DNA from: an uncultured virus (IMG/VR IMGVR_UViG_3300031884_000010)
Taxonomy: Duplodnaviria > Heunggongvirae > Uroviricota > Caudoviricetes
Virus record (IMG/VR): IMGVR_UViG_3300031884_000010
Direction: 5' to 3' (one strand)
DNA length: 64,000 bases
Of this stretch, positions 30,285 to 58,794 are shown one piece after another. Position numbers and translations under genes: made by a program. The stretch's first letter is position 1. Each line of letters begins with the position of its first letter. The notes beneath the pieces are model-generated. The model searched no databases, was not told the origin of the DNA, and saw only the letters and a list, made by a program, of their open reading frames with translations.

Positions 30285-30332
30285 GCCCTTGACGATCCCA
30301 ATGTGAATGGTCACGTAGCCATGGAGGCCCGC

Positions 30333-30446
30333 ATGAGCCGAACCGCCCGCACCATCGGCAATCCCCTGGTGTGGGCGGGGCTGGCCCTGTGCCTCCCCGG
30401 CGCCCTGCTGATCCTGGTCGGACAGTGGTTCCAGGAGCGTGGCTGA
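30333..30446 (+). CDS. Small membrane protein (37 aa)
   Basis: MSRTARTIGNPLVWAGLALCLPGALLILVGQWFQERG; GGAGG SD. Confidence 0.5.
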   Translation: MSRTARTIGNPLVWAGLALCLPGALLILVGQWFQERG

Positions 30447-30535
30447 TCGAAGGCCGCGCTACATCGCCCAACCCGGACCACCTCCCGACTGAGCACCGCC
30501 CCGCCAAGGGAATCTGGCTGGGCGGAGACACGCTG

Positions 30536-31177
30536 ATGGATCGCCTGAATGCCCTCTTTACCCTCGCCGAGCACCTCGCCCGCGATCCCGAGGCATCACG
30601 AGCCATCCAGAAGGCACAAGCCGAAACACGGCCCATCGAGAAGTCGGACTACGACCAGAACCGCCGCGGGCGGATCGTCCATGTCCACAACAAGGTGCTT
30701 CCGCGAGGACAGGAACAGCTACCTGCAGGGGTCGTACGGGGTGGAAAGACTGAAATCACGGCGTTGCTCAACAACACAGCCAAAGGGTTCTCGGCCGTGC
30801 GATTCGGCGATGTGGATACAAATCAAGCCATACGCATCCATGACGCCACTGGGTTCGAGGTGGAGGGATTCCACCACAGGATCGATAAGGCCGCCATCAA
30901 CCATGTAAGGAAGCACCATGGTCCCGGGAACGAAGATGATCCCGCCCTGGAACCAGTCACTGACGACGATATCCTTGCAATCCAATCCATCGTTGCGAAT
31001 CCAGACCACATCGAACGGGGAGAGGACCAGGACACAGGACTACCCAGCATCATCTACACGAAGAAGATGGGCGACACATTCGTGATGGTCGAGGAAATCC
31101 GCTACGGCAGGCGAGAACTCGCCCTCAAGACACTGATGAAGCGCCGAGCAAAGAATGGCCCGGGAGGGAGGCCATGA
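30536..31177 (+). CDS. PBECR3-like ribonuclease (phage barnase/EndoU/colicin E5-D/RelE fold) with N-terminal head-targeting leader
   Basis: GFHHRIDKAAINHVRKHHG...PVTDDDILAIQSIVANPD...IIYTKK...VEEIRYGRRELALKTL; leader carries IQKA and IEKS. Confidence 0.75.
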   Translation: MDRLNALFTLAEHLARDPEASRAIQKAQAETRPIEKSDYDQNRRGRIVHVHNKVLPRGQEQLPAGVVRGGKTEITALLNNTAKGFSAVRFGDVDTNQAIRIHDATGFEVEGFHHRIDKAAINHVRKHHGPGNEDDPALEPVTDDDILAIQSIVANPDHIERGEDQDTGLPSIIYTKKMGDTFVMVEEIRYGRRELALKTLMKRRAKNGPGGRP

Positions 31178-31447
31178 CGCGAGTCTGTGCCTTGCGGCCC
31201 ACCTCATACGCCCAAAGCGTTTCGGCTGGGGCTCCCCACCGGGCATGTAAAGGTTGGGGCCACTTGGGACCGAACGCAAGTCCTTACGCTCACGACCAAA
31301 GGGGGTTCCCGGTGAAGTCGGCGGCGATGTTATACCCTCCGACCCTACGCGCTGCGACCTACATTCGCCCGGAACACAGCGGGAGCGGGAACCAGAGTCA
31401 GGTTGAGCCCATCCCCACCAACCCGCAAGCCCCTTTGTGAGCACCAC

Positions 31448-36850: not shown

Positions 36851-37167
36851 GCACCCAGACCCCCCAGCCAGCCGCCAAGGACCCCCAGCAGCCCCAGGAG
36901 GGCCAGGAGGAGGCCCAGGCCACCCTCGACCCCATGGAGGAGGCCCGCCACCTGCTGGCCGGTATCGAGGCGGACATCCAGGGTGGTCAGGCGGAACTCG
37001 CCCGGACCCTCCACGAAGGCCACGAGCATTTCCGCAAGGGCATGGAGAAGGCCACCAAGGGCCTCCAGGACGAGGATCTGGACAACTGGACGCACCAGGC
37101 CGCGGCCCTGGCGAGGGTCCAGGACGCCACCGCGGGGGTCAAAATGCCATCCGAGGACAAAAGTTGA
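36847..37167 (+). CDS. Hypothetical protein
   Basis: 106 aa, ATGA-coupled to helicase gene. Confidence 0.7.
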   Translation: MSTQTPQPAAKDPQQPQEGQEEAQATLDPMEEARHLLAGIEADIQGGQAELARTLHEGHEHFRKGMEKATKGLQDEDLDNWTHQAAALARVQDATAGVKMPSEDKS

Positions 37168-37208
37168 GGTAGGTCGAAAAAAACTTCAACGATTCGGAGT
37201 ATTAGGGA

Positions 37209-37267
37209 TGGACAATGGTGCGCGACGCCCCATTCTGACTGTGCGCCCCGAAAAGCGCCCACAGGAG
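37209..37267 (+). promoter_or_regulatory. Putative promoter TGGACA-16-CATTCT with leader hairpin and SD
   Basis: Same layout recurs at 39223-39282. Confidence 0.5.
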
Positions 37268-37272
37268 CCCAC

Positions 37273-37542
37273 ATGAACAACACCGAGTTCAACGCCCTAG
37301 TCGCCGGTGACCTGGTGCGGGTCATCAAGTCCGGCAAGGTCTACCGGACCCGCACGGTCGTCACCCTGGCCCAGAAGCAGGAGCAGAACGAGCGCTTCGC
37401 TGCCGGCACCAGCACCTGCCGCTGGGACCGGATGGAGCGCAACTCCACCGACTTCCTCATGCAGCGCGACGGCAAGGACTTCGGCCCCATCCGCGACCTC
37501 AAGCCTGAGAACATCGAGCGAGTGGACGGGGGTGCGAAGTGA
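37273..37542 (+). CDS. Hypothetical early protein
   Basis: 89 aa, AGGAG SD. Confidence 0.75.
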   Translation: MNNTEFNALVAGDLVRVIKSGKVYRTRTVVTLAQKQEQNERFAAGTSTCRWDRMERNSTDFLMQRDGKDFGPIRDLKPENIERVDGGAK

Positions 37543-37817
37543 GCCCCGTCGAGAAACTGATCTCCGACGCCGCCAAGGCCAACATGAGCATCAAGTGGGA
37601 GGAGCCCTACAAGGTGGAGATCCGCCGGCGGGGCAGCGACCGCCCGGTGATCATCTACCTCAAGGGCCTCGACGCCTTCGACTGGGCCTTCCAGGTCCCC
37701 GCCCCCAAAGGGCCCTCCCCCAAGACCATCCGCACCATCCAGGGGGTTCGCACCGCCCTCGCCCTCACACCCAAGAACGACGATGGCTATGCCGAGCGCA
37801 TGCAGGGGGTCCAATGA
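37539..37817 (+). CDS. Hypothetical early protein
   Basis: 92 aa, GTGA overlap. Confidence 0.7.
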   Translation: MSPVEKLISDAAKANMSIKWEEPYKVEIRRRGSDRPVIIYLKGLDAFDWAFQVPAPKGPSPKTIRTIQGVRTALALTPKNDDGYAERMQGVQ

Positions 37818-38095
37818 GCACCCACGCCCCAGGCCCCTGGATCGCCCTGCCGGAAGCCTTCCTGCACCAGACCAGGATCATGAACGAGAACAGGGAGACG
37901 GTCGCCGTCGTCCCCGTCTGGACCGACGGCACCGAGAACGAGCACATCATCGAGGCCGCGCCGGACATGCTCAAGGCCCTCCAGACCATCGAGAGGATCG
38001 TGCTGGACGACTACACCATCGAGGAAACCATCAACGGGAAGGCCATCCTGCTCCAGATTCGGAACGCCGTCGCCGCGGCCGAAGGGAGGGGATGA
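37814..38095 (+). CDS. Conserved small phage protein (HxPGPW...AAPDML type)
   Basis: MSTHAPGPW...IIEAAPDMLKALQ; ATGA overlap. Confidence 0.7.
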   Translation: MSTHAPGPWIALPEAFLHQTRIMNENRETVAVVPVWTDGTENEHIIEAAPDMLKALQTIERIVLDDYTIEETINGKAILLQIRNAVAAAEGRG

Positions 38096-38388
38096 TGGAC
38101 ATCGCCACCCTCAGCCAGACCACCTACGCCTGCCCGCAGGCCATCTACGACGCCGTGCAGCACGCCATGCGCGAAGGAACCGTGGAGATGGTTTTCCAAC
38201 GGGCCCCCACCTACGCCGTGCCAGAGATGCCTGTCGATGCCGGGCCCATCATCTACACGCTGGTCACCCTCTGGTGGCCCACCTTGCCGAAGAAGGACGA
38301 CCGATGGATGCCGTGCAAGATGCTCCGCTGGCAGGTGCCGGCCATCGGCGGGGGAACCCGCATCGTCGGATACGGACCCGCCCGATGA
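38092..38388 (+). CDS. Hypothetical early protein
   Basis: ATGA overlap, GGGAGG SD. Confidence 0.65.
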   Translation: MMDIATLSQTTYACPQAIYDAVQHAMREGTVEMVFQRAPTYAVPEMPVDAGPIIYTLVTLWWPTLPKKDDRWMPCKMLRWQVPAIGGGTRIVGYGPAR

Positions 38389-38603
38389 ACACCGTCCTGC
38401 CAGCCGGACCATACTCCGACCTCGCCAAGCACACGGGGGGCGTCGCCAAGCTGGCGGAGGCCCTGCATGTGGACCGCAAGACGATCCGCACCGCAGCTGT
38501 CGCAGGCCGATGGCTCACGGGCGAACCAGGGGCACGCCTGAAGGCCCTGTGCCACGCCTACAAGGTCACGATCCCGGAAGGGATGAAACCAGACTGGGTC
38601 TGA
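38385..38603 (+). CDS. Cro-like helix-turn-helix protein
   Basis: GGVAKLAEALHVDRKTIR HTH pattern; 72 aa. Confidence 0.7.
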   Translation: MNTVLPAGPYSDLAKHTGGVAKLAEALHVDRKTIRTAAVAGRWLTGEPGARLKALCHAYKVTIPEGMKPDWV

Positions 38604-38606
38604 GCC

Positions 38607-38747
38607 TCACGCGGCCCAGGGGAGGCTAAGTCGCCCCCCTGGCTCCGCAGGAATGTCAGGGGGGGCACCCTCAGCCGCAGGCGCGAACTGGAACGCCTGG
38701 GCCTCGAGGAAGGAACCGAGGGAGAAAACGCAGACTGGCATGAACAT
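38607..38747 (-). CDS. Small orphan ORF (46 aa) with its own promoter
   Basis: MFMPVCVFSLGSFLEAQAFQFAPAAEGAPPDIPAEPGGRLSLPWAA; AGGAGG SD. Confidence 0.5.
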   Translation of the reverse strand: MFMPVCVFSLGSFLEAQAFQFAPAAEGAPPDIPAEPGGRLSLPWAA

Positions 38748-38765
38748 ATAAAGCCTCCTGCTACC

Positions 38766-38793
38766 AGGGTAGGCCGTTCGTTGTGCATGTCAA
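38766..38793 (-). promoter_or_regulatory. Sigma70-like promoter TTGACA-16-TACCCT
   Basis: Perfect -35 at 38793-38788; -10-like hexamer at 38771-38766 just upstream of the SD. Confidence 0.55.
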
Positions 38794-38835
38794 CAATTCG
38801 ACACATTAACACAAAGCAGACCCAGTCCAGAGGCA

Positions 38836-38860
38836 AATAAAAAGGCCCCCGAAGGGGCCT
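38836..38860 (-). terminator. Intrinsic terminator
   Basis: Minus strand AGGCCCC-TTCG-GGGGCCT followed by TTTTAT. Confidence 0.85.
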
Positions 38861-39071
38861 AGTTCCGCGGTGCTTCCAGATTCCGGACTGTGCGGACGCG
38901 TCTGCCGATTACGCTGCTGGACCAGGGCCAGATCGCCTATCCCACGGCGCTGACATCCTCGGGCTCTTGAGGGAGCAGGGACGAGGAGAATAAAGATCGC
39001 AGGGCACCCAGGAGTGCGCCCAGGCCATGTTCCGCGCCAGCAAAACGATGTGGCCCTGCGAAGTCAAAGAA

Positions 39072-39148
39072 TGGAAGCGGGGGCCAGATTCGAACTGGCG
39101 ACTTTCGGCGTATGAAACCGACGCTCTACCGGACTGAGCTACCCCGCA
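39072..39148 (-). tRNA. tRNA-CAT (Met/fMet-like), CCA encoded
   Basis: 77-nt cloverleaf TGCGGGG TA GCTC AGTCCGGTA GAGC G TCGGT TTCATAC GCCGA AAGTC GCCAG TTCGAAT CTGGC CCCCGCT T CCA. Confidence 0.92.
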
Positions 39149-39288
39149 AGGGTGGGCCCCCTCAAGGGCGCAGGGACGAATATGGGATAGAAAAAGAAAA
39201 TAATCAATCTCAATTTTAACCCTGGACAATCCCAATACAGACCCGAAGATGTCTCGTGCGGCCCGAAAACCCGCACAAGGAGACACGC
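39149..39288. promoter_or_regulatory. AT-rich divergent control region (tRNA leftward, early operon rightward)
   Basis: TGGACA(39223)-16-GAAGAT then hairpin GTGCGG/CCGCAC and AAGGAG; ATCCCAAT-like boxes. Confidence 0.55.
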
Positions 39289-39579
39289 ATGGGATACAAG
39301 GAGCACTCCCCCTGGGCCATCCGAACGGTGGTCATCCTCAGCAAAGCAGCCGTGGTCGGCGTGTTCCTGCTGGTGGGCGCCGCCTTCCTCTACGGCGAGT
39401 GGGGCGACAGGGTAGAGCAGGAGCACCTGCGCGAGAACGAAGCCCGCACCGCTGCTGAGTGGCGCGAGGCCGTCCACCAGTGGAACCAGGGCGCCCAGAA
39501 GCGCAAGGCCATGCAGGCGGAGATGGATCAACTGCGGGCCACCATCATGGCCTCCAAGCAAGCCAGCCTCCAGCGATGA
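39289..39579 (+). CDS. Membrane-anchored coiled-coil protein
   Basis: One hydrophobic helix then coiled coil; AAGGAG SD. Confidence 0.7.
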   Translation: MGYKEHSPWAIRTVVILSKAAVVGVFLLVGAAFLYGEWGDRVEQEHLRENEARTAAEWREAVHQWNQGAQKRKAMQAEMDQLRATIMASKQASLQR

Positions 39580-39827
39580 ACGCCCTCTCCTACCGCGCCA
39601 GGAAGAACAGCGTCCACCTGCGGATCGTCGCATACCACCCAAGCATGGAGCCCATGCCCGATGACCACCTGCGCGTGGTGTTCCAGGTGGTCGAGCGGGG
39701 CCGCCCCATCGCCGAGGACCCCGTATTCGAGGAGAACGCCTCCGCGCTCTGCCTCGCACGGGAACTCCACCTCATGCGTGAGGAAGGCTGGGAGATAGAG
39801 CCCTGGGAGGCGCCCTATGGCCACTGA
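39576..39827 (+). CDS. Hypothetical protein
   Basis: ATGA overlap; MNALSYRARK... Confidence 0.65.
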   Translation: MNALSYRARKNSVHLRIVAYHPSMEPMPDDHLRVVFQVVERGRPIAEDPVFEENASALCLARELHLMREEGWEIEPWEAPYGH

Positions 39828-40122
39828 ATTCGACGGACTGCCCCTCTTCGCGCATATCCCATACTCGAATCCAACCACATCCAGGGATGCAGCAGAAACA
39901 GTCCGGCCACACCTAGCCGAACTCGAGCAGAAAGTGCTCGACGCCATCCGTGCCAGGCGAGGAGCAACCTGCGACGAAGTGGAAACGATGACGGGACTCT
40001 CCCATCAGACGGCCAGCGCACGCATCCGCGGCCTCGCGCTTAAGGGCCGGATACAAGACGCCGGAGAAACACGCGCCACACGAAGTGGACGCAAGGCCAT
40101 TGTCTGGACCACCGCAGCTTAA
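39817..40122 (+). CDS. Winged-helix DNA-binding protein
   Basis: TSRDAA..VLDAI..GATCDEV..LSHQTASARIRGL..TRSGRKAIVW. Confidence 0.8.
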   Translation: MATEFDGLPLFAHIPYSNPTTSRDAAETVRPHLAELEQKVLDAIRARRGATCDEVETMTGLSHQTASARIRGLALKGRIQDAGETRATRSGRKAIVWTTAA

Positions 40123-40159
40123 CCCCCGCCCACCGAAAGGGCCCATACAGGAGCACAGC

Positions 40160-41242
40160 ATGTCCGAAACCATCACCGCGCCAGCCGAGGAGATCATCGT
40201 CCCCCCGGAGGGCGGTCCCAGCGAACTGGTCCTCGTCAAGCGCCCCAACCCGGCGACCATCTTCACCGACCAGACCTTCATCGAGGCCCTGCTGGCCAAG
40301 ATCGAAGAAGCCGCCACGGCGTTCGAACCGGACCTCACCACCGACAAGGGTCGGAAGAAGATCGCCAGTCAAGCCTACCGGGTCGCCCAGACCAAGACCT
40401 ACCTCGACGGCATGGGCAAGGATCTGGTGGCCGACTACAAGGAACTTCCCAAGCTGATCGACGCCGGCCGCAAGACCCTGCGCGACCGCCTGGACATCCT
40501 GCGGGACAAGGTCCGCCAGCCCCTCACCGACCTCGAGGCGGAGCAGGAGCGCCAGCAGAAGGTGATCGCCGGCATCAGGTGCATCCCCACTGCCTGCGCG
40601 ACGGCCACCGCCGACACCATCCAGTCCACCATCGATAGCCTGGGGACCGAAACAGAGGACTTCCCCGGATTCACCGAGGCCAAGACCGAAACCCTGGCCA
40701 CCCTCCGGGAAATGCTGGCCAAGCGCCAGGCCCATGAAGCCGAGCAGGCCGAACTGGCCAGGCTCCGCGAGGAGGCTGAGGCCCGCCGGAAGGCCGACGA
40801 GGCCGCGGAGATCGCCCGCAAGGCCGCGGAGCAGGCCACCAAGGATGCCGAGGCCCGGGCCCAGGCAGAGAAGGACGCCGCCTACCGCCGGGAACAGGAT
40901 GCCATCGCGGACAGGAACCGCGCCGAACAGGCCCAGAAGGACGCAGAGGCCCGCCTGGATCGGGAACGCTCCGAAGCAGCCGAGCGCGAGGCCATCGCCC
41001 GCCGTGAGGCAGCCGCGGAGGAGCGCCGGCGCCAGGAGGAGCAGCAGGCCACAGACCGCCGCGCAGCCGAGGCCCGGGAACAGGACCAGGCCAACCGCAA
41101 GCGCGTGATGAACGAGGCCCTGGAGGATCTGAAGGCCCAGGTGCCCACCTACCCCGAGGGGATCCAGGTGGACGCCCTCCTGAAGAAGATCCTCCTGGCC
41201 GTCGAACAGGGCAAGGTCCGCCACACCCGGATCGAGTTCTGA
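40160..41242 (+). CDS. Phage coiled-coil protein (often annotated 'TolA-like')
   Basis: PDLTTDKGRKKIASQAYRVAQTKTYLDGMGKDLV motif then long E/A/R coil. Confidence 0.75.
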   Translation: MSETITAPAEEIIVPPEGGPSELVLVKRPNPATIFTDQTFIEALLAKIEEAATAFEPDLTTDKGRKKIASQAYRVAQTKTYLDGMGKDLVADYKELPKLIDAGRKTLRDRLDILRDKVRQPLTDLEAEQERQQKVIAGIRCIPTACATATADTIQSTIDSLGTETEDFPGFTEAKTETLATLREMLAKRQAHEAEQAELARLREEAEARRKADEAAEIARKAAEQATKDAEARAQAEKDAAYRREQDAIADRNRAEQAQKDAEARLDRERSEAAEREAIARREAAAEERRRQEEQQATDRRAAEAREQDQANRKRVMNEALEDLKAQVPTYPEGIQVDALLKKILLAVEQGKVRHTRIEF

Positions 41243-41246
41243 GCCC

Positions 41247-41363
41247 ATGGCCCCCAAGAAACTCACCCCCAAACGCCGCAAGGCCCTCGTCAAACGCCTC
41301 CTCGACCGCCTGGTCGCTGACGCCAAGGCCCGGGCCGTCGCCAACCTAACGAGGACCGCATGA
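41247..41363 (+). CDS. Small basic peptide (38 aa)
   Basis: MAPKKLTPKRRKALVKRLLDRL...; stop overlaps the next ATG. Confidence 0.45.
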   Translation: MAPKKLTPKRRKALVKRLLDRLVADAKARAVANLTRTA

Positions 41364-41998
41364 GCGTCACCGCCAGCCACCGCGCACGAGAAGCATTCCT
41401 CCAACAGATCCTGGCCATGGAGCCCGAATACGCCACCGGGTTCGCCCGCGGGGCCAGCGGCATAGCCCATAAGACCATCTGGAACGAGGGAAACCTCCGC
41501 GAAGCCCTGGGTATCCCCGTGGTGACCCCGGCCCCGATCCTGTTCACTATCGAGGTCTCGCACCCCATCGCCTTCGACGCCGGAGCCCGGATGCGCTTCG
41601 AGGTCACAGCCGAGGCCCTGGCCAAAGCAGCTGCCCATGAGGCCGAGCAGGGCATCATCGCTGGCGCCTTCACCGAATGTCAGCGCCTGATCAAGCAGGT
41701 TGAGGAACTCCGGCAGCGGATCTTCACCCTCGAGGGAGGACTGTCCACCGACACCCCGGCAGTCTACCTCGTCGCCCAGGAGGTCGCCCGGGCCCGGGCG
41801 AAATACCCCGTGACCAACTTCCACGACCGGATCGACGGATTCGTCCAGGAAGCCGGGGAGGCCATGCAGGCCCTCCTGAAGCTGAAGCACAACGGGACCA
41901 ACATCGCCCCGGACGGCACCGACCTGCTGGCCCACGCCCGCGAGGAGGTCATCCAGGCCGCCGGCCAGTGCGTCCGACTGCTCGAGGAGGCCCTGTGA
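41360..41998 (+). CDS. Protein with C-terminal MazG-like NTP pyrophosphatase fold
   Basis: EVARARAKYP..VQEAGEAMQAL...REEVIQAAGQCVRLLE. Confidence 0.55.
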   Translation: MSVTASHRAREAFLQQILAMEPEYATGFARGASGIAHKTIWNEGNLREALGIPVVTPAPILFTIEVSHPIAFDAGARMRFEVTAEALAKAAAHEAEQGIIAGAFTECQRLIKQVEELRQRIFTLEGGLSTDTPAVYLVAQEVARARAKYPVTNFHDRIDGFVQEAGEAMQALLKLKHNGTNIAPDGTDLLAHAREEVIQAAGQCVRLLEEAL

Positions 41999-42258
41999 TC
42001 GAGGTCCGAGGCTTCCGCTGCAGCCACTGCGACGCAGCCCGCCGGGTCCGCCGGACCTACGCCACCAGCCAGTCCTGCTTCAAGCACGAGCGGGCCTGCT
42101 ACATGAACCCCCTCAACGCCGCCTGCGCCACCTGTCGCAAGTGGGCCGTCGAGGAGGACCATGGCCACGCCTGCACGGAGGCCCATGACCGCGGCCCAGA
42201 GAAGGTCGACGCGTCCTTCCCCGTCAGGCACTGCCCCTTCTGGGAGGCCAAGCCATGA
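41995..42258 (+). CDS. Cys-rich zinc-binding protein
   Basis: GTGA overlap; CSHC, HERAC, CATC, CPFW. Confidence 0.65.
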   Translation: MIEVRGFRCSHCDAARRVRRTYATSQSCFKHERACYMNPLNAACATCRKWAVEEDHGHACTEAHDRGPEKVDASFPVRHCPFWEAKP

Positions 42259-42407
42259 AGGCACTCACCTACCAGGACTGGCTAGACGCCGGGTTCCAGG
42301 TCCGCAAGGGCCAGAAATCCAAGGCCAAGAACAAGGCCAGAGAGCCCACCTTCACCCGGGACCAGGTGGAGATCGCCAACGAACGCCCCCCCCGGGAGGA
42401 AGCGTGA
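42255..42407 (+). CDS. Small phage protein (50 aa)
   Basis: MKALTYQDWLDAGFQVRKGQKS...; ATGA/GTGA coupled at both ends. Confidence 0.6.
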   Translation: MKALTYQDWLDAGFQVRKGQKSKAKNKAREPTFTRDQVEIANERPPREEA

Positions 42408-42592
42408 TCAAGCCCGACACCTGCATCAAGTGTGAGAAGGCTGAACCCGAGTGGGGGTCATTCCTCTGCAAGCCGTGCCAGGACACCCTCAAGGTCCCGG
42501 CCGAATCCAGTCGCCCCGAGCAGGGCAAGCCCGTGGCCAAGCGCACCGTCCGCCCCTACCACAAGAACCGATTTGGAGAATTCGCCCGATGA
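42404..42592 (+). CDS. Small zinc-finger protein
   Basis: CIKC...LCKPC; GGAGG SD. Confidence 0.55.
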   Translation: MIKPDTCIKCEKAEPEWGSFLCKPCQDTLKVPAESSRPEQGKPVAKRTVRPYHKNRFGEFAR

Positions 42593-43059
42593 GCAACTAC
42601 CTGAAGCACCCCACGGGGAACCTCCCTGCCCCCCGCATCTTCGGCCGCTGGATGGTCACGGGCCCCGAATTCGAGGACGGGTCCGGCTGGAGCATGTGCC
42701 AGCACGAGAACGACAAGTGCCAGAAGTGCGTCGCCTCCTTCAGCGACGAGGACGATGCCACCGAAACCGCCCGGATCCTCGACAAGTGGGACACGGCCAT
42801 CGCCCAGGGCCGCGAGGCCGCCAAGCAGATGGGCATCCACCTGGCCGTCCATCTGCGGGAAGCGGACGCAGCCGGCAAGATGACCACGGTCGTGGACGAG
42901 ACGGTCCCCGACGACACGATCATCATCGAGAAGGACGGCCAGGAGGTCGCCCGCCTCGTGGGGATCGCCATGGAACCCGAGGAGCCCAAGGCCCCCCAGG
43001 TCACCCACGAACTCTCCGGCGTCGCCCGACCCTACAAGGGACTGCCGAAACCCCAGTAA
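42589..43059 (+). CDS. Hypothetical protein
   Basis: ATGA overlap, 156 aa. Confidence 0.65.
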   Translation: MSNYLKHPTGNLPAPRIFGRWMVTGPEFEDGSGWSMCQHENDKCQKCVASFSDEDDATETARILDKWDTAIAQGREAAKQMGIHLAVHLREADAAGKMTTVVDETVPDDTIIIEKDGQEVARLVGIAMEPEEPKAPQVTHELSGVARPYKGLPKPQ

Positions 43060-43157
43060 GGTTCGGCAGAAGGTCAGATGCCGGAACCATCAACCCAAGC
43101 CCAGGGCGGCCTCGTGGCGGTCCTGTCCATCTGCACGACCCTCGAAAGGAACACGCC

Positions 43158-43472
43158 ATGGACCTGAAAGAATTAAATAACCTGGAAAGCCTGGCTGCCG
43201 GGGCAAGGCGCGAAGCCACACTAGCCACAGAAAGAGCCCAACATGCCGCCAAGTTCCGAGGCGAGTTGGCCGAACCAGAAACCAAGGTCAGCCTGGAGTG
43301 CAAGATCTCGGATTGGGTCGCTCCGTTGGTCCGCAAGAAGTTCAGCGATGCCGTTCTGGAGCACGCGCCATCTATCTTCCGCATGATCGAACTGCGGGAG
43401 CAGGCTGAGGCAAAGCGCCTCACCGCGCAGGCTGAAATCTTCGAAGCCCAGATCACAGCTGCAATCCTCTGA
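43158..43472 (+). CDS. Hypothetical protein (unit 1)
   Basis: AAGGA SD, 104 aa. Confidence 0.7.
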   Translation: MDLKELNNLESLAAGARREATLATERAQHAAKFRGELAEPETKVSLECKISDWVAPLVRKKFSDAVLEHAPSIFRMIELREQAEAKRLTAQAEIFEAQITAAIL

Positions 43473-43489
43473 TGTCCAGGAGGTGCCCG

Positions 43490-43624
43490 ATGTGGAAAGC
43501 CATCCTCTGTTTCTTCTGGGAGCCGTGGTCCTGCGATGCGTCTAACCCCTACAAAATCACTCGGACCTGTGCCCGATGCGGAAGGCAGGAAGTTCTGGCT
43601 TTCGGAATGTGGCACCGGATCTGA
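43490..43624 (+). CDS. Small Cys protein, DUF1660-like (unit 2)
   Basis: MWKAILCFFW...RTCARCGRQE; AGGAGG SD. Confidence 0.6.
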   Translation: MWKAILCFFWEPWSCDASNPYKITRTCARCGRQEVLAFGMWHRI

Positions 43625-43645
43625 AGTTGTCCAGAAAGGTGAACC

Positions 43646-43993
43646 ATGAACCCGATGCCCGACCCCAAGCGCAGCGAGTGGCAGGCTGACCCCCTAAAGT
43701 GGATCTTCGCCATGACGGAATGGGGCGAGGAAGCCAAAGCGGAGATCGCCGGGCTGGAAATGATGGTCAAGGGTGCCATCTCCCTGGGGACCGAAAGGAC
43801 CCTGGAGCGTGACGAAGCCCGTTCCAGGATTGCGGGTCTGGAGGCGCAGAACCGCCACGACGATGCCGCTGATACCGAGTGCCGGAACCTGCTGATGGAG
43901 GAGAACGACAACCTCCGCGCCCAGATTGCGACACTCAAGGAACGCCTTGAGCAGCCGTGTCTTGCCTGTGGCTTCATCAACCCCGCCGAATAG
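43646..43993 (+). CDS. Coiled-coil hypothetical protein (unit 3)
   Basis: 115 aa, AAGG SD. Confidence 0.65.
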   Translation: MNPMPDPKRSEWQADPLKWIFAMTEWGEEAKAEIAGLEMMVKGAISLGTERTLERDEARSRIAGLEAQNRHDDAADTECRNLLMEENDNLRAQIATLKERLEQPCLACGFINPAE

Positions 43994-44021
43994 GCTCTTG
44001 TCCAAGATAAGGAACCTCGCC

Positions 44022-44396
44022 GTGTGGAACCCATTCAAGCGAAAACCGAAACGACTAGGCGACCTGATGGCTGACTACCTGAAAGCCGGGGAACAAATCT
44101 TCGGCGTGGGCTATAACGAGCGCGAACACCAGAAGTATGAAGAACTCAGGGCAACCGTCCAATGCGCTGAGGACGAAAGCCTAGCCGATGGAATCCGGCG
44201 ACTCGCCCTCCGCGTTAAGGATCTGGAACGGTCAGAGCGTGGGCTGGCGGAGGAGCGTGACCACGCCGAGGAGTGGGCGGACAAACTGGCTGAAGCCATC
44301 GCCCGCCACTTCCGCGAGGACATTGGCGAACACTCCAATATCAACCTTCCTTGGGCGAATGCCCACAACCTCATCGACGGTAACTTCTGCCGTTGA
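44022..44396 (+). CDS. Hypothetical protein (unit 4)
   Basis: GTG after TAAGGA; ERDHAEEWADKLA..IGEHSNINLPW phage motif. Confidence 0.65.
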   Translation: MWNPFKRKPKRLGDLMADYLKAGEQIFGVGYNEREHQKYEELRATVQCAEDESLADGIRRLALRVKDLERSERGLAEERDHAEEWADKLAEAIARHFREDIGEHSNINLPWANAHNLIDGNFCR

Positions 44397-44416
44397 TGTC
44401 CAAGATCGGAGGCACT

Positions 44417-45313
44417 GTGAGCGCCATTGACCATCTAAATCGGATCATGGAAGCTGCCGCTGGGCTGGGGCGCAATGTCCCGCCTGACGAAGCAATCCGG
44501 AGAAGCGTCCTGGTGACTTCCACGATGACCGACCAAATGGAAAGGTCTAACCACCGGATGCTGGCAGGGGCATCAACACTTGGGAACATCCGGGTGGCCT
44601 ATGAGGTGCCAATTGATTTGTACAAGGAGCTACAAGCATCCAAGATCGACCCGGAGGATATTCCAACCGAGCTTATCGTGATCCCTCACCCAAGGATCTT
44701 TCTTCGGGCATTCGACCAAGAAACAAAAAAGGGGTTCTTCTACTTCCTGGCCATGGATCATTTTGACGGGTTCCGGGTGCTCACCGTGTTCATGCCGACC
44801 GGGTCGCTTCCCGTAAAACTTATTCCGGGTCTTTCCGTCGCAGACTCCATTCGTAAAACGGAATTTCAGATCGGGCCATTCCGTGGTGACGGATCTTATA
44901 CGCCAGAAGGGAAGATGTTTGAGATGTTGGAGACAGTCGTGAAGGTGGCCCTGTTTCTGTCGGCTACCAATGACTATGAAGATGTCGATGTGCCCCCGAT
45001 TGGTGGCGGGAAGAAGAATCGAAACAAACCCGACTTCATGAAGCAGCCAGCCACCCGAAGGATCATTGGTGGGAAGTTCGTTTCAGCGCTGAACCGTTAT
45101 CGCAAGACCCGATCTACCGGAGCCGCCACGTCAATTACACATGGCGATACCAAACCTCACCTTCGCGCTGGGCACTGGCATCTCTACTGGACCGGGAAAG
45201 GTAGCAAGACGGGAACTGGGCCAAAAATCCCCAAGGTCCAATGGTTGCATCCTTGCCTTGTGAACGCTGACGAGGTTGGCGAGGTTGAGATCCAACGCAC
45301 CATCAAAAACTGA
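44417..45313 (+). CDS. AcrVA2-like protein (unit 5)
   Basis: GTG after GGAGG; C-terminal KPHLRAGHWHLYWTG...VQWLHPCLVN matches the PHxRxxHWH..W..P..VN motif of the AcrVA2 family; visibly lower GC. Confidence 0.55.
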   Translation: MSAIDHLNRIMEAAAGLGRNVPPDEAIRRSVLVTSTMTDQMERSNHRMLAGASTLGNIRVAYEVPIDLYKELQASKIDPEDIPTELIVIPHPRIFLRAFDQETKKGFFYFLAMDHFDGFRVLTVFMPTGSLPVKLIPGLSVADSIRKTEFQIGPFRGDGSYTPEGKMFEMLETVVKVALFLSATNDYEDVDVPPIGGGKKNRNKPDFMKQPATRRIIGGKFVSALNRYRKTRSTGAATSITHGDTKPHLRAGHWHLYWTGKGSKTGTGPKIPKVQWLHPCLVNADEVGEVEIQRTIKN

Positions 45314-45332
45314 ATCTGTCCAGGAGTCTGAC

Positions 45333-45593
45333 ATGAACTTCTCGCTTGTTTACCTCCTGGTCTGTCTGGCCCTCTTTCTTGGGTTCAAGGTCGGGGCACG
45401 GTGGGGGAATCGTCCACCTCGTCCTGGCCGAATCGAAATCCCAAGCAACCTATTCCAGGAACTGGTAAACCTCGCATGGTGCGCCAGCACCCACACGGAC
45501 GCCCATCAGGTCTATGGCACCTCCGAGCAGGACGCCACCAACACCGCCCAGGCCGCGCAAAACACCCTAGACCGATTCAACCGCGCCAAGTAG
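45333..45593 (+). CDS. Membrane-anchored hypothetical protein (unit 6)
   Basis: N-terminal hydrophobic helix; AGGAG SD. Confidence 0.65.
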   Translation: MNFSLVYLLVCLALFLGFKVGARWGNRPPRPGRIEIPSNLFQELVNLAWCASTHTDAHQVYGTSEQDATNTAQAAQNTLDRFNRAK

Positions 45594-45616
45594 GCGTATG
45601 TCCAGAGGCACACCAC

Positions 45617-45844
45617 ATGCTGCTCAAAGACTTCATCGAAAAACTCCAATACATCGAGAAGGAAAGCCGAGGCACCCACCACTTTGACGGGAAGGTGGAA
45701 GTGTTTTTCTACTTGGACGATCCCACCGATGAGGTTGATGTAGAGATAGACCTGCATCCAGAAGACCCGGTTGAGCCGTGGATATTGATGGGCTGTGGCT
45801 GCTGGGCTGGTGCGAATGTTCTCCTTCAAATTAACCGCAAGTGA
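45617..45844 (+). CDS. Acidic hypothetical protein (unit 7)
   Basis: 75 aa, GAGG SD; GCGCW motif. Confidence 0.65.
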   Translation: MLLKDFIEKLQYIEKESRGTHHFDGKVEVFFYLDDPTDEVDVEIDLHPEDPVEPWILMGCGCWAGANVLLQINRK

Positions 45845-45861
45845 TCTTGTCCAGGAGCCCC

Positions 45862-46044
45862 ATGCCTAAACCCGTCATAGTCTCAGCGACATGCCAACCG
45901 GCCCCCGATGAACTCAGCCTCTGCGACCCAGAGATCCGCGCCTTGTTCGAGGGCACACAATACTTCATCGGCACGCCCACCATGGCCCAACTGGTCAAGG
46001 AATTGCGCCTGCTGCGCGAGGCACTCGCCAAGGAGAAGCCATGA
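45862..46044 (+). CDS. Hypothetical protein
   Basis: AGGAG SD after last TGTCCA; stop overlaps the next ATG. Confidence 0.6.
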   Translation: MPKPVIVSATCQPAPDELSLCDPEIRALFEGTQYFIGTPTMAQLVKELRLLREALAKEKP

Positions 46045-46448
46045 AGAAGAAGCTGAAGGCCAAGATCAAGGCGCTTGCGGCCCAGGTGGCAGCACTCGAT
46101 GACCGGACAGCCCGCCTCGTGAATGAAGTGGCCCTCCTCAAGCGCTTCATCCGGGCCACGCCCGAGGAGCAGAAGGCCCTCCTGGAAACGTGGGACGCCC
46201 AGGACAAGGCCCTCCGAGCCATCCACAAGACGATGGAGGACACCCTCCTATTCGGGGCCCAGAGCACCACACTCGAGCCCGTGTTCCAGGGATTCCCAGC
46301 CCCCAAGGGGTTCACGCATGACACCGGAACCGTCCATGTAGGCCCCGAAGTGGTGGCGCTCACCTCCGGCCCGCTGGCCGAGGGAATGACCATCCACTAC
46401 CCGGGACACCCGCTGGACGGAGCGACGATCACCCGGGCCAGCGACTAG
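46041..46448 (+). CDS. Hypothetical protein
   Basis: 135 aa, AAGGAG SD. Confidence 0.65.
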   Translation: MKKKLKAKIKALAAQVAALDDRTARLVNEVALLKRFIRATPEEQKALLETWDAQDKALRAIHKTMEDTLLFGAQSTTLEPVFQGFPAPKGFTHDTGTVHVGPEVVALTSGPLAEGMTIHYPGHPLDGATITRASD

Positions 46449-46576
46449 AGGTCGAGCCACCCGAACACGAGGCGCCCGAGGGCCGCGAAGAAGTCAAGGA
46501 ACGCCTCTACCAACAGGGACCACCGGCTGCGCTCATGCCTCGCCCAGATCTGCTCTAGCCTTTCGTCTGGTTTCAT
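46445..46576 (-). CDS. Small hydrophobic ORF (43 aa)
   Basis: MKPDERLEQIWARHERSRWSLLVEAFLDFFAALGRLVFGWLDL; stop overlaps the convergent stop. Confidence 0.4.
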   Translation of the reverse strand: MKPDERLEQIWARHERSRWSLLVEAFLDFFAALGRLVFGWLDL

Positions 46577-46597
46577 GGGCCACCCCATTAAGAGCGC

Positions 46598-46894
46598 TCA
46601 AGACAGGTTGGGCTCCACCACCAGCGAGGACACCCGGCTGAACACCGAGCGACCCGTGCTGGCATCCTGCACCTGCAGCTGGTAAACCCCCGCCACAGGG
46701 AAGTCGCCGGCGCCCACCTGGTAGGCCACCTTCCCCGACGGGCCGTCCACCAGCCCCACAGGGAGGGGAATGGGAACCGTCGTCGGAAGGGAGGCCGGCG
46801 CCTTGATGACCAGGTTGACGGCGGTCGCCGCGCTCAGATCAAGGCCGGTGGCCAGGGAAAGGACATAACCGAAGCTGCCAGCCTGCACGCTCAT
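46598..46894 (-). CDS. Small Ig/BppU-like virion protein
   Basis: DLSAAT..GKVAYQV..GDFPVAGVYQLQV. Confidence 0.55.
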   Translation of the reverse strand: MSVQAGSFGYVLSLATGLDLSAATAVNLVIKAPASLPTTVPIPLPVGLVDGPSGKVAYQVGAGDFPVAGVYQLQVQDASTGRSVFSRVSSLVVEPNLS

Positions 46895-47361
46895 CAGAAC
46901 TCCAGGGAAGTGGTGGGGGGAGTGAAGGTCACGACGGCCGGCCCCGGAGGGACGAACCCCACGCTTGTGCCGGGACGCAGCACGGCGCCAGCCAAGGCCC
47001 CGGACGCCGGGAGAACCACCGTCCCATTGAGCGGGGCGGGGCCATCCACCAGTTGAAACTCCAGGCCCAGGTCCAACAGCGACCCGGCCATGCTCATGAC
47101 CTGGCCGACGATCTCATATCCACCCGCCACGAGGAGTCCCAGGGAGACGCGCCCGCCCAGGTCCCTGCCACTCGAGCCCCATGCGACCACAGGAACGGGG
47201 ACCTCGGCCAGAGAGGACACGTTCCGGAGGGTCACCTGCCCCCCCACCCCATGGGCATCCTGGACGAGCGATGTGCCCCCGATGAGCCCCAGGACGTCCG
47301 TGGCGGACAGACTGATCCAGAGGTCCGGCATGTCACCGCGGAAGAAGGTCGGGATGCTCAT
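46894..47361 (-). CDS. Probable virion protein
   Basis: 155 aa, translationally coupled within the block. Confidence 0.55.
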   Translation of the reverse strand: MSIPTFFRGDMPDLWISLSATDVLGLIGGTSLVQDAHGVGGQVTLRNVSSLAEVPVPVVAWGSSGRDLGGRVSLGLLVAGGYEIVGQVMSMAGSLLDLGLEFQLVDGPAPLNGTVVLPASGALAGAVLRPGTSVGFVPPGPAVVTFTPPTTSLEF

Positions 47362-49129: not shown

Positions 49130-49762
49130 CTAGGTCGGGACTTCTTCCCACTGCATGGACAGAAGGAGCGAGGCCGCAACGGACGCGATGTTGGTGTAGA
49201 CGCAGGCGTAGCCTCCGGGCGGCAGGATGACGCTCCCCTCCAGGTCGATAAGCTGGAAGGGCTGTACGCCGTAGGCGCTGACCGCCGCCGTCCCGATCTC
49301 GCCGAAGATGTCACGGAGCACCGGAGCGGTGGGGAGCGTGGCGGCTGCGTCCACGAGGCCCTGGCCGCTCGGCCCATTGACGAAATTGTTGGACGGCGTG
49401 AGGGGCGTCGTGTGGGTGACGTTGGTCCCGTTGTTGAATCCGGTCATCAGGCCCAAGGCGAGGGTCGTGGTCTGGGCCAGGATCTGCGCGATGCCCACCT
49501 TGTTGAGCACGAGGTTGACCGTGCTGCCGATGGGGTTCGACAGGCAAAGGCCCGTGTAGGTGGTCGCAAAGGCCGCCGAGGTCGCCACGGCGGCCTGATT
49601 GGCTGTGGCGAATAGGGCCTTGTTGTATGCCGTCTCGTAGTAGCGCCCGTGAAGCTCCTGCATGATCAGTTCCGCGAGGCGGCCTGACCGGAGCATGGCG
49701 GGCGTGTTGACGCCGAGGGCGGGGTTGGTGGCCTGTGCGCCGACCTGGGACTGGAGAAGCAT
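49130..49762 (-). CDS. Probable virion/fibre protein
   Basis: 210 aa beta-rich (HGRYYE, LSNPIGS, ILPPG, WEEVP); GAGG SD. Confidence 0.6.
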   Translation of the reverse strand: MLLQSQVGAQATNPALGVNTPAMLRSGRLAELIMQELHGRYYETAYNKALFATANQAAVATSAAFATTYTGLCLSNPIGSTVNLVLNKVGIAQILAQTTTLALGLMTGFNNGTNVTHTTPLTPSNNFVNGPSGQGLVDAAATLPTAPVLRDIFGEIGTAAVSAYGVQPFQLIDLEGSVILPPGGYACVYTNIASVAASLLLSMQWEEVPT

Positions 49763-49770
49763 GGGTTACC

Positions 49771-51327
49771 TCACTTGTAGAAGATGCTGCCGGTGATGGA
49801 GGCGGTGGTGGATCCGTTGTATCCGGTGACGCAGGCAAAGGACATGGCGCTGGCGCCGTTCATGATCCCGAGGGGGGACATAACGGTGAGGCTGGCGCTG
49901 GCGGGGATGAGGAAAACGCAAGTCGGGGCCGTGGTGCCCAAGGTGACGCTGCCCGAGGCCACGTTCCAGAAACTGAGGTAGACCGGGGACGCCGTATTGT
50001 TGAGGATGCTGAAGCCGTAGAGGCTTCCCGCAGAAGCCTTGAGAGCCGTAAGGGCGCCCGTGGCGTTCACGTTCACATTGGAGAGGGCCGCCGTCGCACT
50101 CGTGCTCGGACATGGCGAGTCCAGAATGGGGGTCGTGTTCGGCGTGTTCCCGATCTGGGCGGTCCAAGTTCCACCCTGGGAAGCAGTACAAAGCAGACTT
50201 CCTGCCGTATTCTGTGTCACAGATAGAATCTGAGGGTTCAGATCAGTCGTTGAGAGCCGGGTGAAACCTTGGCAAACGGCGCCGACCAAGTAGGCGTTGG
50301 ATCTGCACCGAAGGTAACGGAGGTTACATTTTCCAGAGTAAAAATTATGCGTGCTGGCACTCGGGCTAATTAGGGCGTTAACCGGGATCCCCGTCAAAAC
50401 CGAAATGTCGTAGACCGGCACCGCAACCCAGCTAACGCCATCATTGCTTTCCTCGAAGATGTAGTTGCCCTGCGACAACCCTGCCCCGATATTGATCTGA
50501 GCGAGAAAGGATCGGTAGGAAGTGGTGCCCCCGGCCATCGTGTCGATAGGAGCGGTGTTGCCCGTCAGCACATTCCAAGGGGCAGGAGATGCTGCGGACG
50601 GGAAGTAGAAGGCTTGTCCGACAATCAGCAGATCCTGGGCCTGATCCGACGCGATGGTAACGGGCATGGACCTCGTGGACGGCTGCTGCCCCGGAAGGCC
50701 GGGCACCACAGAGAGCGCCACGCCCGTCTGTGGGTCCAGCGCCTGGGTGAGCCGGTCCATGCCGTAGTCGCCCACGACACACCGGCCAATGACATTGGTC
50801 ACCACCGAGCCCTGCATGGCCTCCGCATTCAGGCGGACGTATCGGGTCGCCACCTTGAGGACGAAGATGCCAGATCGCGTGATCGAATCCGTGGTGACCA
50901 ATTCGTCCAGGCCCATCACCTGAAGCTGGAACCACGACCCCGTGCTCTGGTCGTTGGACCCCTCCACAGTGATCAACCCGTTCCAGGCCCCCACAAGCTG
51001 GATGACCAGGGTGTCCTGCCCGATGGTGTCGATGGCCGTCTGCGGGGCCGGGGTGGAGATGGTGCCGGTCTGGAGGACGGAGGCGTCCACATCGTTGACG
51101 TTCATGACCGAATTGGGCGACATCGCCACCACGAGGGCCGGATCCGCCGCCACAGGAGCGGTGGAGGCGGCCTTGACCGCGGCGACGTTGCTCCAGTTCT
51201 GAGGATCGCCAACGCTGATGACCTGGCGGTCTACGGTCGTGGAGCCCGAATTGGTAAGCTGGACAGCATCGACGTTCGGGCCCCCGCCAGCGGGAGCGAC
51301 CTGAACGGGACTAGGAGTGAGTGTCAT
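49771..51327 (-). CDS. Probable virion fibre protein
   Basis: 518 aa with two EGSND/EESNDGxxW beta modules and C-terminal KASAGSLYG..VTLGTTAP module. Confidence 0.6.
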   Translation of the reverse strand: MTLTPSPVQVAPAGGGPNVDAVQLTNSGSTTVDRQVISVGDPQNWSNVAAVKAASTAPVAADPALVVAMSPNSVMNVNDVDASVLQTGTISTPAPQTAIDTIGQDTLVIQLVGAWNGLITVEGSNDQSTGSWFQLQVMGLDELVTTDSITRSGIFVLKVATRYVRLNAEAMQGSVVTNVIGRCVVGDYGMDRLTQALDPQTGVALSVVPGLPGQQPSTRSMPVTIASDQAQDLLIVGQAFYFPSAASPAPWNVLTGNTAPIDTMAGGTTSYRSFLAQINIGAGLSQGNYIFEESNDGVSWVAVPVYDISVLTGIPVNALISPSASTHNFYSGKCNLRYLRCRSNAYLVGAVCQGFTRLSTTDLNPQILSVTQNTAGSLLCTASQGGTWTAQIGNTPNTTPILDSPCPSTSATAALSNVNVNATGALTALKASAGSLYGFSILNNTASPVYLSFWNVASGSVTLGTTAPTCVFLIPASASLTVMSPLGIMNGASAMSFACVTGYNGSTTASITGSIFYK

Positions 51328-51344
51328 GGGGCCTCGATGGATAG

Positions 51345-51370
51345 GGGGCCCACCCCGAAAGGCGGGCCCC
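51345..51370. terminator. GC hairpin between 51391 and 51327 genes
   Basis: GGGGCCC..GGGCCCC stem; no strong U-tract. Confidence 0.4.
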
Positions 51371-51390
51371 GCAGCTGTGGGTCACCCGCC

Positions 51391-51864
51391 TTAGTTGTCG
51401 ATCTGGACGGACAACTGGCCGGCGGCGAAGGAGGGCGCCGCGTCGCCGTTGTTGATGGTCTTCGAGGTGCCGAGGTTGCCGTAGAACTGGAGGTTGCCCA
51501 CGGTGAGCGCATCGTAGATGCCGAAGCTGGTCACGACACCCCAGGAGGCCGTCGGCGAGGGGAAGGTCACGGGGTTGTTGTTGGAGGTCGTGCCGGATGT
51601 CCCGGTGCTGGCGACCGTGGTCCCCGCACCCTGCGTGCCCGCCCAGTTCGCCAGCGAGGAAGTGATGGCCACACGGGCGTAGGAACCGCCCGAGACTTCC
51701 ACCTCACTGCTGTTGGCGTCGTTGTCGGCCGTGGTGAACAGCGCGACATAGAGGGAGGTCGGCCCGGTGCCAGCCCCAGCCGAGGCGCCGGTGACGCCGA
51801 AAGCCTGGGCCCGGAAATACCAGTCGATGAAGTGGTTCTCGAGGAAATCCGACATTGCACTCAT
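51391..51864 (-). CDS. Conserved virion structural protein (fibre/appendage subunit)
   Basis: MSDFLEN..LYVALFT..EVSGGSYARVAI..FPSPTASWG..GIYDA..KTINNGD. Confidence 0.75.
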   Translation of the reverse strand: MSAMSDFLENHFIDWYFRAQAFGVTGASAGAGTGPTSLYVALFTTADNDANSSEVEVSGGSYARVAITSSLANWAGTQGAGTTVASTGTSGTTSNNNPVTFPSPTASWGVVTSFGIYDALTVGNLQFYGNLGTSKTINNGDAAPSFAAGQLSVQIDN

Positions 51865-58573: not shown

Positions 58574-58794
58574 CCCGGAGCCTGCTGGGCCATCTTGGCG
58601 ACCTCGAGAAGCACCCGCCGGATGGTGGCAGCGGCCAGGTGGGGGGAGAGTTCTCCTGAGTCGAGGCCGAGGGCCAGACGATCCATGCAGAAGGTGGCGT
58701 GGGTCAACTGGGCCAGGTGAAGCCGGGACTTGAGCGCGTGGGCACAGAACAGCCCGCAGGACTTCTCAGCAGAGAGGGATTCTCCGGGCATCAC
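58570..58794 (-). CDS. Hypothetical protein
   Basis: 74 aa, coupled overlaps. Confidence 0.55.
   Translation of the reverse strand: MMPGESLSAEKSCGLFCAHALKSRLHLAQLTHATFCMDRLALGLDSGELSPHLAAATIRRVLLEVAKMAQQAPG

Follow-up and report, generated by a model that had tools for sequence, protein, structure and literature searches.

A six-base junction word delimits exchangeable gene cassettes in uncultured freshwater phages

The DNA analyzed here is a stretch of 64,000 nucleotides (nt) from an uncultured virus of the Caudoviricetes (IMG/VR record IMGVR_UViG_3300031884_000010), referred to below as the window, in which eight copies of the hexamer TGTCCA stand between small open reading frames (ORFs). 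This array is a true cassette array with a junction core of 6-7 nt, and it is not an integron. From the compared sequences TGTCCA, or more exactly HTGTCCA, emerges as the near-invariant core of a standard linker between genes, which runs from a stop codon through 0-8 nt to TGTCCA, a Shine-Dalgarno (SD) leader and a start codon. The architecture of the linker, its spread over contigs and the fact that breakpoints coincide with the hexamer are direct observations, and they point to what is apparently a simple and previously undescribed way for phages to trade accessory genes.

The TGTCCA array and its linker in other phages

A word count places TGTCCA on the + strand at 43124, 43473, 43628, 43999, 44397, 45317, 45599 and 45848, in agreement with a preliminary description made from the sequence alone, and finds no copy on the - strand between 41742 and 47732. 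At the seven sites from 43473 onward the hexamer begins 0, 3, 5, 0, 3, 5 and 3 nt past the stop codon of a long ORF; an SD-like run of purines and a start codon come within 8-18 nt after it. The first hexamer is exceptional, lying 64 nt past the stop at 43059 and 28 nt ahead of the ATG at 43158. The distances between successive hexamers (349, 155, 371, 398, 920, 282 and 249 nt from the coordinates) and the single ORF in each interval are as proposed at first, when seven units were counted; the eighth hexamer also precedes an ORF (45862-46044), so that the array holds eight (104, 44, 115, 124, 298, 86, 75 and 60 aa). A lower GC content had been claimed for some units and in fact applies to all eight (0.506-0.615 vs 0.652-0.667 in the flanks). 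Early genes around the array had been said to be joined mostly by overlaps; overlaps of 4 nt at 41360, 42255 and 46041 bear this out in part.

The units had also been called promoterless, and no sigma-70-like promoter is predicted on the + strand in 38500-47000, the sigma-70 consensus being one that may not fit this host. The hexamer itself was ruled out as a -10 or -35 promoter element because a conserved SD separates it from the start codon, and its pairing with the 3' end of 16S rRNA was rejected on orientation, judged against the E. coli sequence. An Rfam scan of 38500-47000 returned nothing besides tRNA, and no inverted repeats tied to the hexamers were found in 42900-46500. Cassette 2, as the only one of the cassettes, has a 21-nt inverted repeat (76% complementary) near both of its ends (43482-43502 / 43596-43616).

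The expected number of TGTCCA copies per strand in 2.73 kb is 0.55-0.66, below one as first estimated, and the Poisson probability of at least eight is ~1e-7 to 5e-7. Over both strands of the window the hexamer occurs 54 times, a number reached by none of 100 shuffles (mean 31.2, maximum 46). Twelve hexamers in the window, each with at most 30 copies overall, also reach at least eight copies in some 2.73-kb span, so that the TGTCCA count by itself is not decisive; it is the uniform stop and SD context and the evidence from other contigs that make the array more than chance. As a separate observation, 8 of the window's 12 + strand copies of TTGTTG fall in 49386-51578, inside - strand genes where the word reads CAACAA.

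The layout of stop, N0-8, TGTCCA, leader and start forms arrays on ~45 other uncultured viral contigs. The 16-mer of the window's first leader has matches in 38 viral stretches, with true small-ORF arrays on ~16 contigs, the rest looking like chance matches within genes. The commonest short linker, the 21-mer TGTCCATCTGGAGGAACCATG, occurs in 34 stretches before 26 different downstream ORF starts and behind 28 different upstream contexts, and the hexamers within 2.5 kb of its matches number 175 on the gene strand vs 44 on the opposite strand. Prokaryote genomes (596 billion bases) contain this 21-mer in two contigs only, both phage-like; cellular-collection contigs with the linker are one contig of an Armatimonadota metagenome-assembled genome (MAG), itself phage-like, and one 1.4-kb contig in a Methanomicrobiales MAG. 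A 36-nt linker query against cultured phages gave a single 17-nt chance match and no linker, and a literature search by title and abstract returned nothing relevant on TGTCCA as an intergenic phage motif.

Of the 80 signal-type sites at all loci, 66 are found 0-8 nt past a stop codon, with peaks at 3 and 0 (three sites are counted twice in this number, L001 repeating the window), and the distance from hexamer to start codon is 8-40 nt and bimodal. Among hexamers in this post-stop position TGTCCA accounts for 64 sites, vs 13 for the best unrelated hexamer; ten one-mismatch variants are seen at 1-4 sites each, and variant hexamers such as TGTCTA, TGCCCA and TGTCAA exist. The base preceding the hexamer is G in 0 of the 64 sites, which gives the form HTGTCCA. 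Multiples of three are favored in the distance from stop to hexamer, 42 of the 66 sites having 0, 3 or 6 nt, and where the stop directly abuts the hexamer it is TGA ten times and TAG never.

Arrays are confined in their positions and diverse in their contents. In the complete record G010 the signal-type copies sit in one cluster only, the other copies being coding, and G011 has one array with 11 signal-type copies. The 75 cassette ORFs collected across loci contain only three families, of two members each, and Pfam matches above the cut-off were obtained for 4 of the 65 scanned (RNA ligase, N6/N4 methylase, PLD-like and PD-(D/E)XK), one further ORF being Mom-like. The suggestion that such arrays hold anti-defense genes draws on a small number of relatives (Mom, an orphan methylase, an RNA ligase, a PLD nuclease); in the window itself, none of the eight cassette ORFs has a Pfam match above the cut-off. 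The genes beside the arrays belong to modules for replication and recombination that are unrelated to one another (primase, ERF with YqaJ, family A polymerase, VapE, DnaB, SNF2). It had further been expected that homologs elsewhere would be bounded by TGTCCA in a different array: this is the case for the relative of cassette 3 retrieved by protein search in L095, whose array has five hexamers on the gene strand, none on the opposite strand and the same type of leader, and not for the 298-aa protein, whose relatives are discussed below.

Two further sequence elements accompany the hexamers. An element of ~45 nt is conserved before first-in-array hexamers (window 43068-43123; L044, L041, L048 and L015) and consists of GGAGCCGGAACCATCAACCCAGG, a small GC hairpin, CTCC/TTT and TGTCCA; it looks like either a decayed SD and start or an entry or regulatory element. 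The long leaders (window 43124-43157, L091:309-340 and L092:6694-6730) share TGTCCA-YCYGCAYGAMCC followed by a CCU...AGG pairing with the SD; this pairing varies in compensating fashion and may form a mini-hairpin masking the SD.

Breakpoints between relatives and in lake populations

One breakpoint is given by the contig L001, in which window 30085-43633 (13,549 nt) recurs at 100% identity; the two part right after the A of the third hexamer, beyond which L001 has a long leader, then two small ORFs, a gene for a tyrosine integrase and, as att site, a tRNA-like sequence. This lysogeny module (L001:13544-15200), present instead of cassettes 3-8, comprises ORFs of 57 and 72 aa, the latter Xis-like, together with a tyrosine integrase of 374 aa and a tRNA 3' end as att; the window's phage is without an integrase, unlike this sister genotype. 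In a second pair, L026 and L048 have in common a 235-nt cassette (97.9% identity) that extends from the first base of one hexamer to the last base of the next, between unrelated flanks. The alignments of L012 with L013 (99.7% alike) and of L018 with L046 end on the last A of a hexamer. Past the shared hexamer, L012 has a PLD gene and an integrase and L013 two cassettes, one of them Mom-like; the two sequences become alike again inside the 3' end of the integrase gene, where the junction has only CCA in common with the hexamer. The remnant is visible in the two sequences (L013:8063-8160 vs L012:9020-9203), L013 retaining the last ~50 integrase codons and reading TGTCCA|CCTGCTG where L012 reads CACCCA|CCTGCTG. 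Finally, a single cassette recurs at seven loci, where the gene before it is one of at least four different ones and similarity begins at the hexamer.

Breakpoints were surveyed in 47 sequences (310 kb) as the internal ends of alignments of at least 90% identity and at least 100 nt. Left ends lie within 1 nt of a hexamer start in 10 of 31 cases and right ends at, or 1 nt beyond, the last base of a hexamer in 7 of 25, giving 17 of 56 combined, where a random position falls within 2 nt of an edge in 0.4% of cases; the other 39 ends are elsewhere, mostly in backbone genes. Ends near a site are mostly exactly on the hexamer edge (6 of 7 on the right, 8 of 11 on the left) and not elsewhere in the 10-30-nt leader.

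The same junctions segregate within lakes. In Logan contigs from three lake runs the stretch is split into 42900-43502, 43473-43633, 43627-44004 and 43975-46500. Alternative neighbors are seen at the loose contig ends at 43473, where there are two kinds, at 43627, at 43633, where the neighbor is the L001 leader, and at 44004. Depth over the two small cassettes is 2-5 times that of the flanks, and cassettes 4-8 form one unbranched contig in three DNA runs. Two IMG/VR sequences 100% identical to the window, L010 and L011, start inside cassette 3, at 43898 and 43878, as is consistent with assemblies breaking at a cassette common to several genotypes. RNA was recovered from one metatranscriptome run with 7% of the sampled words, as two contigs (43473-43641 and 45983-46210) that show neither ends nor strand and could include DNA carry-over, the uncovered parts being uninformative.

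The preliminary prediction that indels and replacements between relatives break exactly at TGTCCA is therefore borne out by L001, by L026/L048, by the lake contigs and by the alignment ends. Its broader proposal, a site-specific system that serially adds or removes cassettes, is retained as far as cassette behavior is concerned, with serial addition for cassettes 2 and 3 only; joining by a site-specific recombinase is a possibility on the unlikely side.

The phage around the array

The whole window is phage DNA, with genes for a portal, a terminase, a head protein, a baseplate J protein and a tail tube protein, and the array lies at the far end of an early operon on the + strand (39256-46448), which is convergent with the late genes (Table 1).

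Table 1. Features of the array, from the spacer before the first hexamer to the first backbone gene beyond the last cassette
Feature	Position	Strand	Remarks
Non-coding spacer before first hexamer	43060..43123	+	GGAACCATCAACCCA box and small GC hairpin ending just ahead of TGTCCA; predicted fold -17.4 kcal/mol
Hexamer 1	43124..43129	+	Opens long leader TGTCCATCTGCACGACCCTCGAAAGG; 16-mer of leader recurs in other viral contigs
Cassette ORF 1, 104 aa	43158..43472	+	No Pfam or PHROG family above threshold
Hexamer 2	43473..43478	+	Abuts stop TGA; branch point in lake contigs, two alternative left neighbors
Cassette ORF 2, 44 aa	43490..43624	+	Unit 43473-43633 is a separate contig at 2-5 times flank depth
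Hexamer 3	43628..43633	+	L001 identity stops at its final base
Cassette ORF 3, 115 aa	43646..43993	+	Relative in L095, other array, same leader type
Hexamer 4	43999..44004	+	Branch point in lake contig; alternative right neighbor in run X1
Cassette ORF 4, 124 aa	44022..44396	+	phrog_6628, E 3.4e-7; L047 relative comes after a hexamer
Hexamer 5	44397..44402	+	Abuts stop TGA
Cassette ORF 5, 298 aa	44417..45313	+	phrog_6160, E 2.3e-23; distant L012/L013 relatives without hexamer borders
Hexamer 6	45317..45322	+	
Cassette ORF 6, 86 aa	45333..45593	+	
Hexamer 7	45599..45604	+	
Cassette ORF 7, 75 aa	45617..45844	+	Lowest unit GC of the eight, 0.506
Hexamer 8	45848..45853	+	
Cassette ORF 8, 60 aa	45862..46044	+	ATGA overlap with next gene marks array end
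First backbone gene past array, 135 aa	46041..46448	+	GC 0.652; last + strand gene before convergent late genes

In line with the preliminary description, no recombinase gene was found in the window by a family scan (including PF00589) of the ORFs covered or by tblastn of the L001 integrase. No function was found for a 385-aa early protein (40085-41242) by Pfam, PDB sequence search or the Atlas, and it could not be shown to be an annealing protein. The region 42400-46500 has no DNA match in cultured phages, and the relatives of the portal protein in cultured phages are all below 34% identity. The stretch is nearly complete in 19 lake or freshwater DNA runs (20 runs listed, from 18 studies).

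Elsewhere in the window, a Tad2-like (anti-Thoeris) gene lies among - strand genes (58791-59033), followed on the same strand by a gene for a Ref-like RecA-dependent nuclease (59317-59892) and one for a fusion of ParB with an N6/N4 methylase (61425-63182). On the + strand, a 1815-aa protein (31403-36850) combines an inorganic pyrophosphatase-like N-terminal domain with a SNF2 helicase at its C-terminus; upstream of its gene are those of a PBECR3 nuclease-domain protein (30371-31177) and of a 1613-aa protein with no family match (23365-28206). Between these large genes and the early operon is a phage-borne tRNA-Met (39072-39148, -), which L001 has too.

Exchange at the linker and competing explanations

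As the explanation of these observations we tentatively favor, at a little less than even confidence, microhomology or template-switch exchange at a linker that is conserved for expression or for exchangeability. In the early regions of a wide range of uncultured freshwater phages, the linker marks off promoterless accessory ORFs, most of them lacking relatives; an upstream early promoter would read through the array, and each ORF would be translated from its own SD. Cassettes would be gained, lost or replaced by breakage-and-joining or by template switching between two hexamers, those of co-infecting relatives or those within one array. The hexamer would act as the microhomology because it is the sole sequence common to unrelated cassettes, and each exchange product would restore an intact linker. 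No dedicated recombinase should then be needed, and the hexamer would probably be kept for the expression of cassette RNA, for exchangeability or for both. The junction between a hexamer and a non-site inside the integrase gene, with only CCA in common, would under such an exchange count against a dedicated enzyme. Junctions between flanks that are 100% identical over many kb suggest that the events are frequent or very recent.

Several points weigh against exchange through microhomology. Six to seven common bases are very few for annealing-type recombination, and a near-invariant hexamer beside free flanks, in phages with unrelated core genes, looks like the target of a sequence-specific reader. 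Variant hexamers go with the upstream unit in two cases, for instance L063 with TGCCCA vs L073 with TGTCAA before a right flank that is 98.7% identical, and this movement hints at a fixed cut at the 3' edge of the hexamer rather than a crossover anywhere inside it. The RNA that could bear on a role of the hexamer in expression consists of the two contigs, which show no ends. Moreover, the L058 junction is without any hexamer, and neither L012 nor L013 has hexamer borders at its distant relative of the 298-aa protein.

These points lead to the next explanation, possible and, in our estimate, distinctly on the unlikely side, namely that a dedicated sequence-specific enzyme (a recombinase, a nickase or an HUH-type nuclease, encoded by host or phage) reads HTGTCCA, cuts at or after CCA, and inserts, excises or swaps cassettes much as in an integron, without attC folding. 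The near invariance of the hexamer between free flanks with G excluded at position -1, its occurrence in phages with unrelated core genes, and breaks exactly at both of its edges without longer common homology would all be expected of an enzyme site, as would exchange between flanks that are otherwise 100% identical and the segregation of variant hexamers with the upstream unit. The CCA-only junction could equally be read as a cut at a secondary site. A tyrosine integrase module borders the array in both L001 and L012; the integrase is on the downstream side there, beside an att site of tRNA type. However, no recombinase family accompanies the arrays: tyrosine recombinases (PF00589) are present in 5 of 31 array-bearing records and in one of the nine near-complete ones, serine recombinases (PF00239) in 0 of 22 and PF12705 in 2 of 22, and no protein family is common to more than three array neighborhoods, the search covering these three Pfam families and neighborhoods of 10 kb. 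Nor are there inverted repeats or hairpins beside the site; none of the internal hexamers has a hairpin upstream, and the 40 nt upstream of 64 sites have a mean folding energy of -6.4 vs -8.5 kcal/mol in controls. Known tyrosine and serine recombinases and IS200/IS605-type enzymes need flanking inverted-repeat or hairpin elements. The most developed form of this explanation, to which we likewise give a minority share of belief, is an integron-like system of many freshwater phage lineages, in which a bare 7-nt HTGTCCA at cassette 3' ends would be cut in trans by a putative enzyme, possibly the host's, with a common pool of accessory ORFs serving unrelated phages.

It is improbable, more so than the action of an enzyme, that UGUCCA is purely an RNA-level signal, acting in intercistronic processing, as an aid to ribosome loading or re-initiation, or in the binding of a regulator, and that breaks coincide with it through selection for junctions at gene borders, where the hexamer fills much of the short intergenic space. 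In favor of an RNA signal, the hexamer invariably lies on the transcribed strand, closely coupled to the preceding stop and immediately before the SD, the flanking RNA is less structured than controls, like that of translation start regions, and the long leaders have a conserved 20-nt element and the CCU...AGG pairing, by which the SD could be masked. A precedent exists in the start-associated sequences of Cluster K mycobacteriophages (PMC3203893). In contrast, only the eight low-GC cassette genes of the window carry the hexamer and its other early and late genes do not, the signal-type copies of G010 are limited to one cluster, the spacing to the start codon is variable and bimodal, and breaks near a site fall mostly on the exact hexamer edge, not elsewhere in the leader.

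The hexamer as a general pre-SD signal of the host genome, an explanation already raised at the outset, was examined in MAG G002, which may not be the phage's host. The word TGATGTCCA occurs there 57 times vs 10 for the reversed control (5.7x), and the 20 places inspected are all within long open frames and none is of linker type, which also rules out TGATG gene overlaps as the source of the enrichment. Counts in a linker context are not clearly enriched (stop-NNN-TGTCCA 62 vs 40 and TGTCCA..GGAG..ATG 20 vs 16 in controls). A search of 151 genomes of the MAG's phylum did not recover a protein that flanks the L013 att site, and the L013 att-flank proteins have no NCBIfam match. Chance clustering, a general host signal or an assembly artifact, for which the equally dense hexamers of the window and the TGATGTCCA excess could be cited, is very improbable given the uniform stop and SD context in the window and ~45 other contigs, the coding location of the inspected MAG places and the lack of a clear enrichment in the linker counts, and given that a 6-nt repeat cannot mislead assemblers with k of at least 31 and that the same branches appear in three runs.

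Among known systems, the array resembles the integron in consisting of promoterless single-ORF units, mostly without relatives, in one orientation and joined at a short core after the stop; in the presence or absence of cassettes between close relatives, with breakpoints at the core; and in that the core seems to be part of the 3' end of the upstream unit. In integrons, each cassette carries at its 3' end an attC, an imperfect palindrome of roughly 60-140 bp. In contrast, the array has no adjacent IntI, no attC-like palindrome and no GTTRRRY core, as was pointed out in the preliminary description: the unit borders are HTGTCCA, without inverted repeats and with weak folds. Phage arrays also differ from integrons in sitting in early operons with a standardized SD leader on each ORF.

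A second comparison is with the PeSL cassettes of T4-type phages, which Comeau et al. 2014 (PMC4122927) reportedly also treat. PeSL motifs consist of a strong sigma-70-like promoter and a stem-loop terminator (Arbiol et al. 2010, PMC2839356). According to the available text of that paper, they too are repeated intergenic motifs among non-essential ORFs without relatives in variable regions, and the indels and replacements between close relatives that end in the repeats are ascribed to recombination between motifs (PMC2839356). The core described here differs in being 6-7 nt long, with no promoter match and no stem-loop at internal sites, and in being common to phages with unrelated core genes. 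PeSL repeats also yield circles by recombination between neighbors; for the array, the assembled lake contigs had no circle joints reported.

The start-associated sequences (SAS/ESAS) of Cluster K mycobacteriophages, for which a role in translation is suspected (Pope et al. 2011, PMC3203893), are likewise short asymmetric motifs in one orientation before non-structural genes of differing families, with a function that the available text gives as not established. SAS is described as missing from the host genome (PMC3203893), as the 21-mer linker here is limited to two phage-like contigs of the prokaryote collection. However, SAS is 13 bp long, includes the SD and lies 3-7 bp from the start codon, and the available text does not report it as a mosaic breakpoint (PMC3203893). 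TGTCCA stands upstream of the SD, 8-40 nt from the start, and is tied to the preceding stop.

The transcription-regulating sequences of coronaviruses have an invariant 6-7-nt core before each gene, in one orientation, at which template switching takes place and genes are gained or lost. They differ in belonging to an RNA virus whose polymerase switches templates in transcription, and the phage arrays give no sign of discontinuous synthesis.

The shuffling of accessory and counter-defense genes in phages has so far been explained largely by rare illegitimate recombination and selection. In dozens of uncultured phages, the points of exchange are now marked by a defined junction word that can be searched for and that segregates within single lake populations; this makes the turnover of cassettes measurable and a shared pool of phage accessory genes cataloguable. 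Through these six bases, enzyme-driven and microhomology-driven mosaicism become directly testable against each other, and if an enzyme does read the site, it would represent a new kind of minimal site-specific system.

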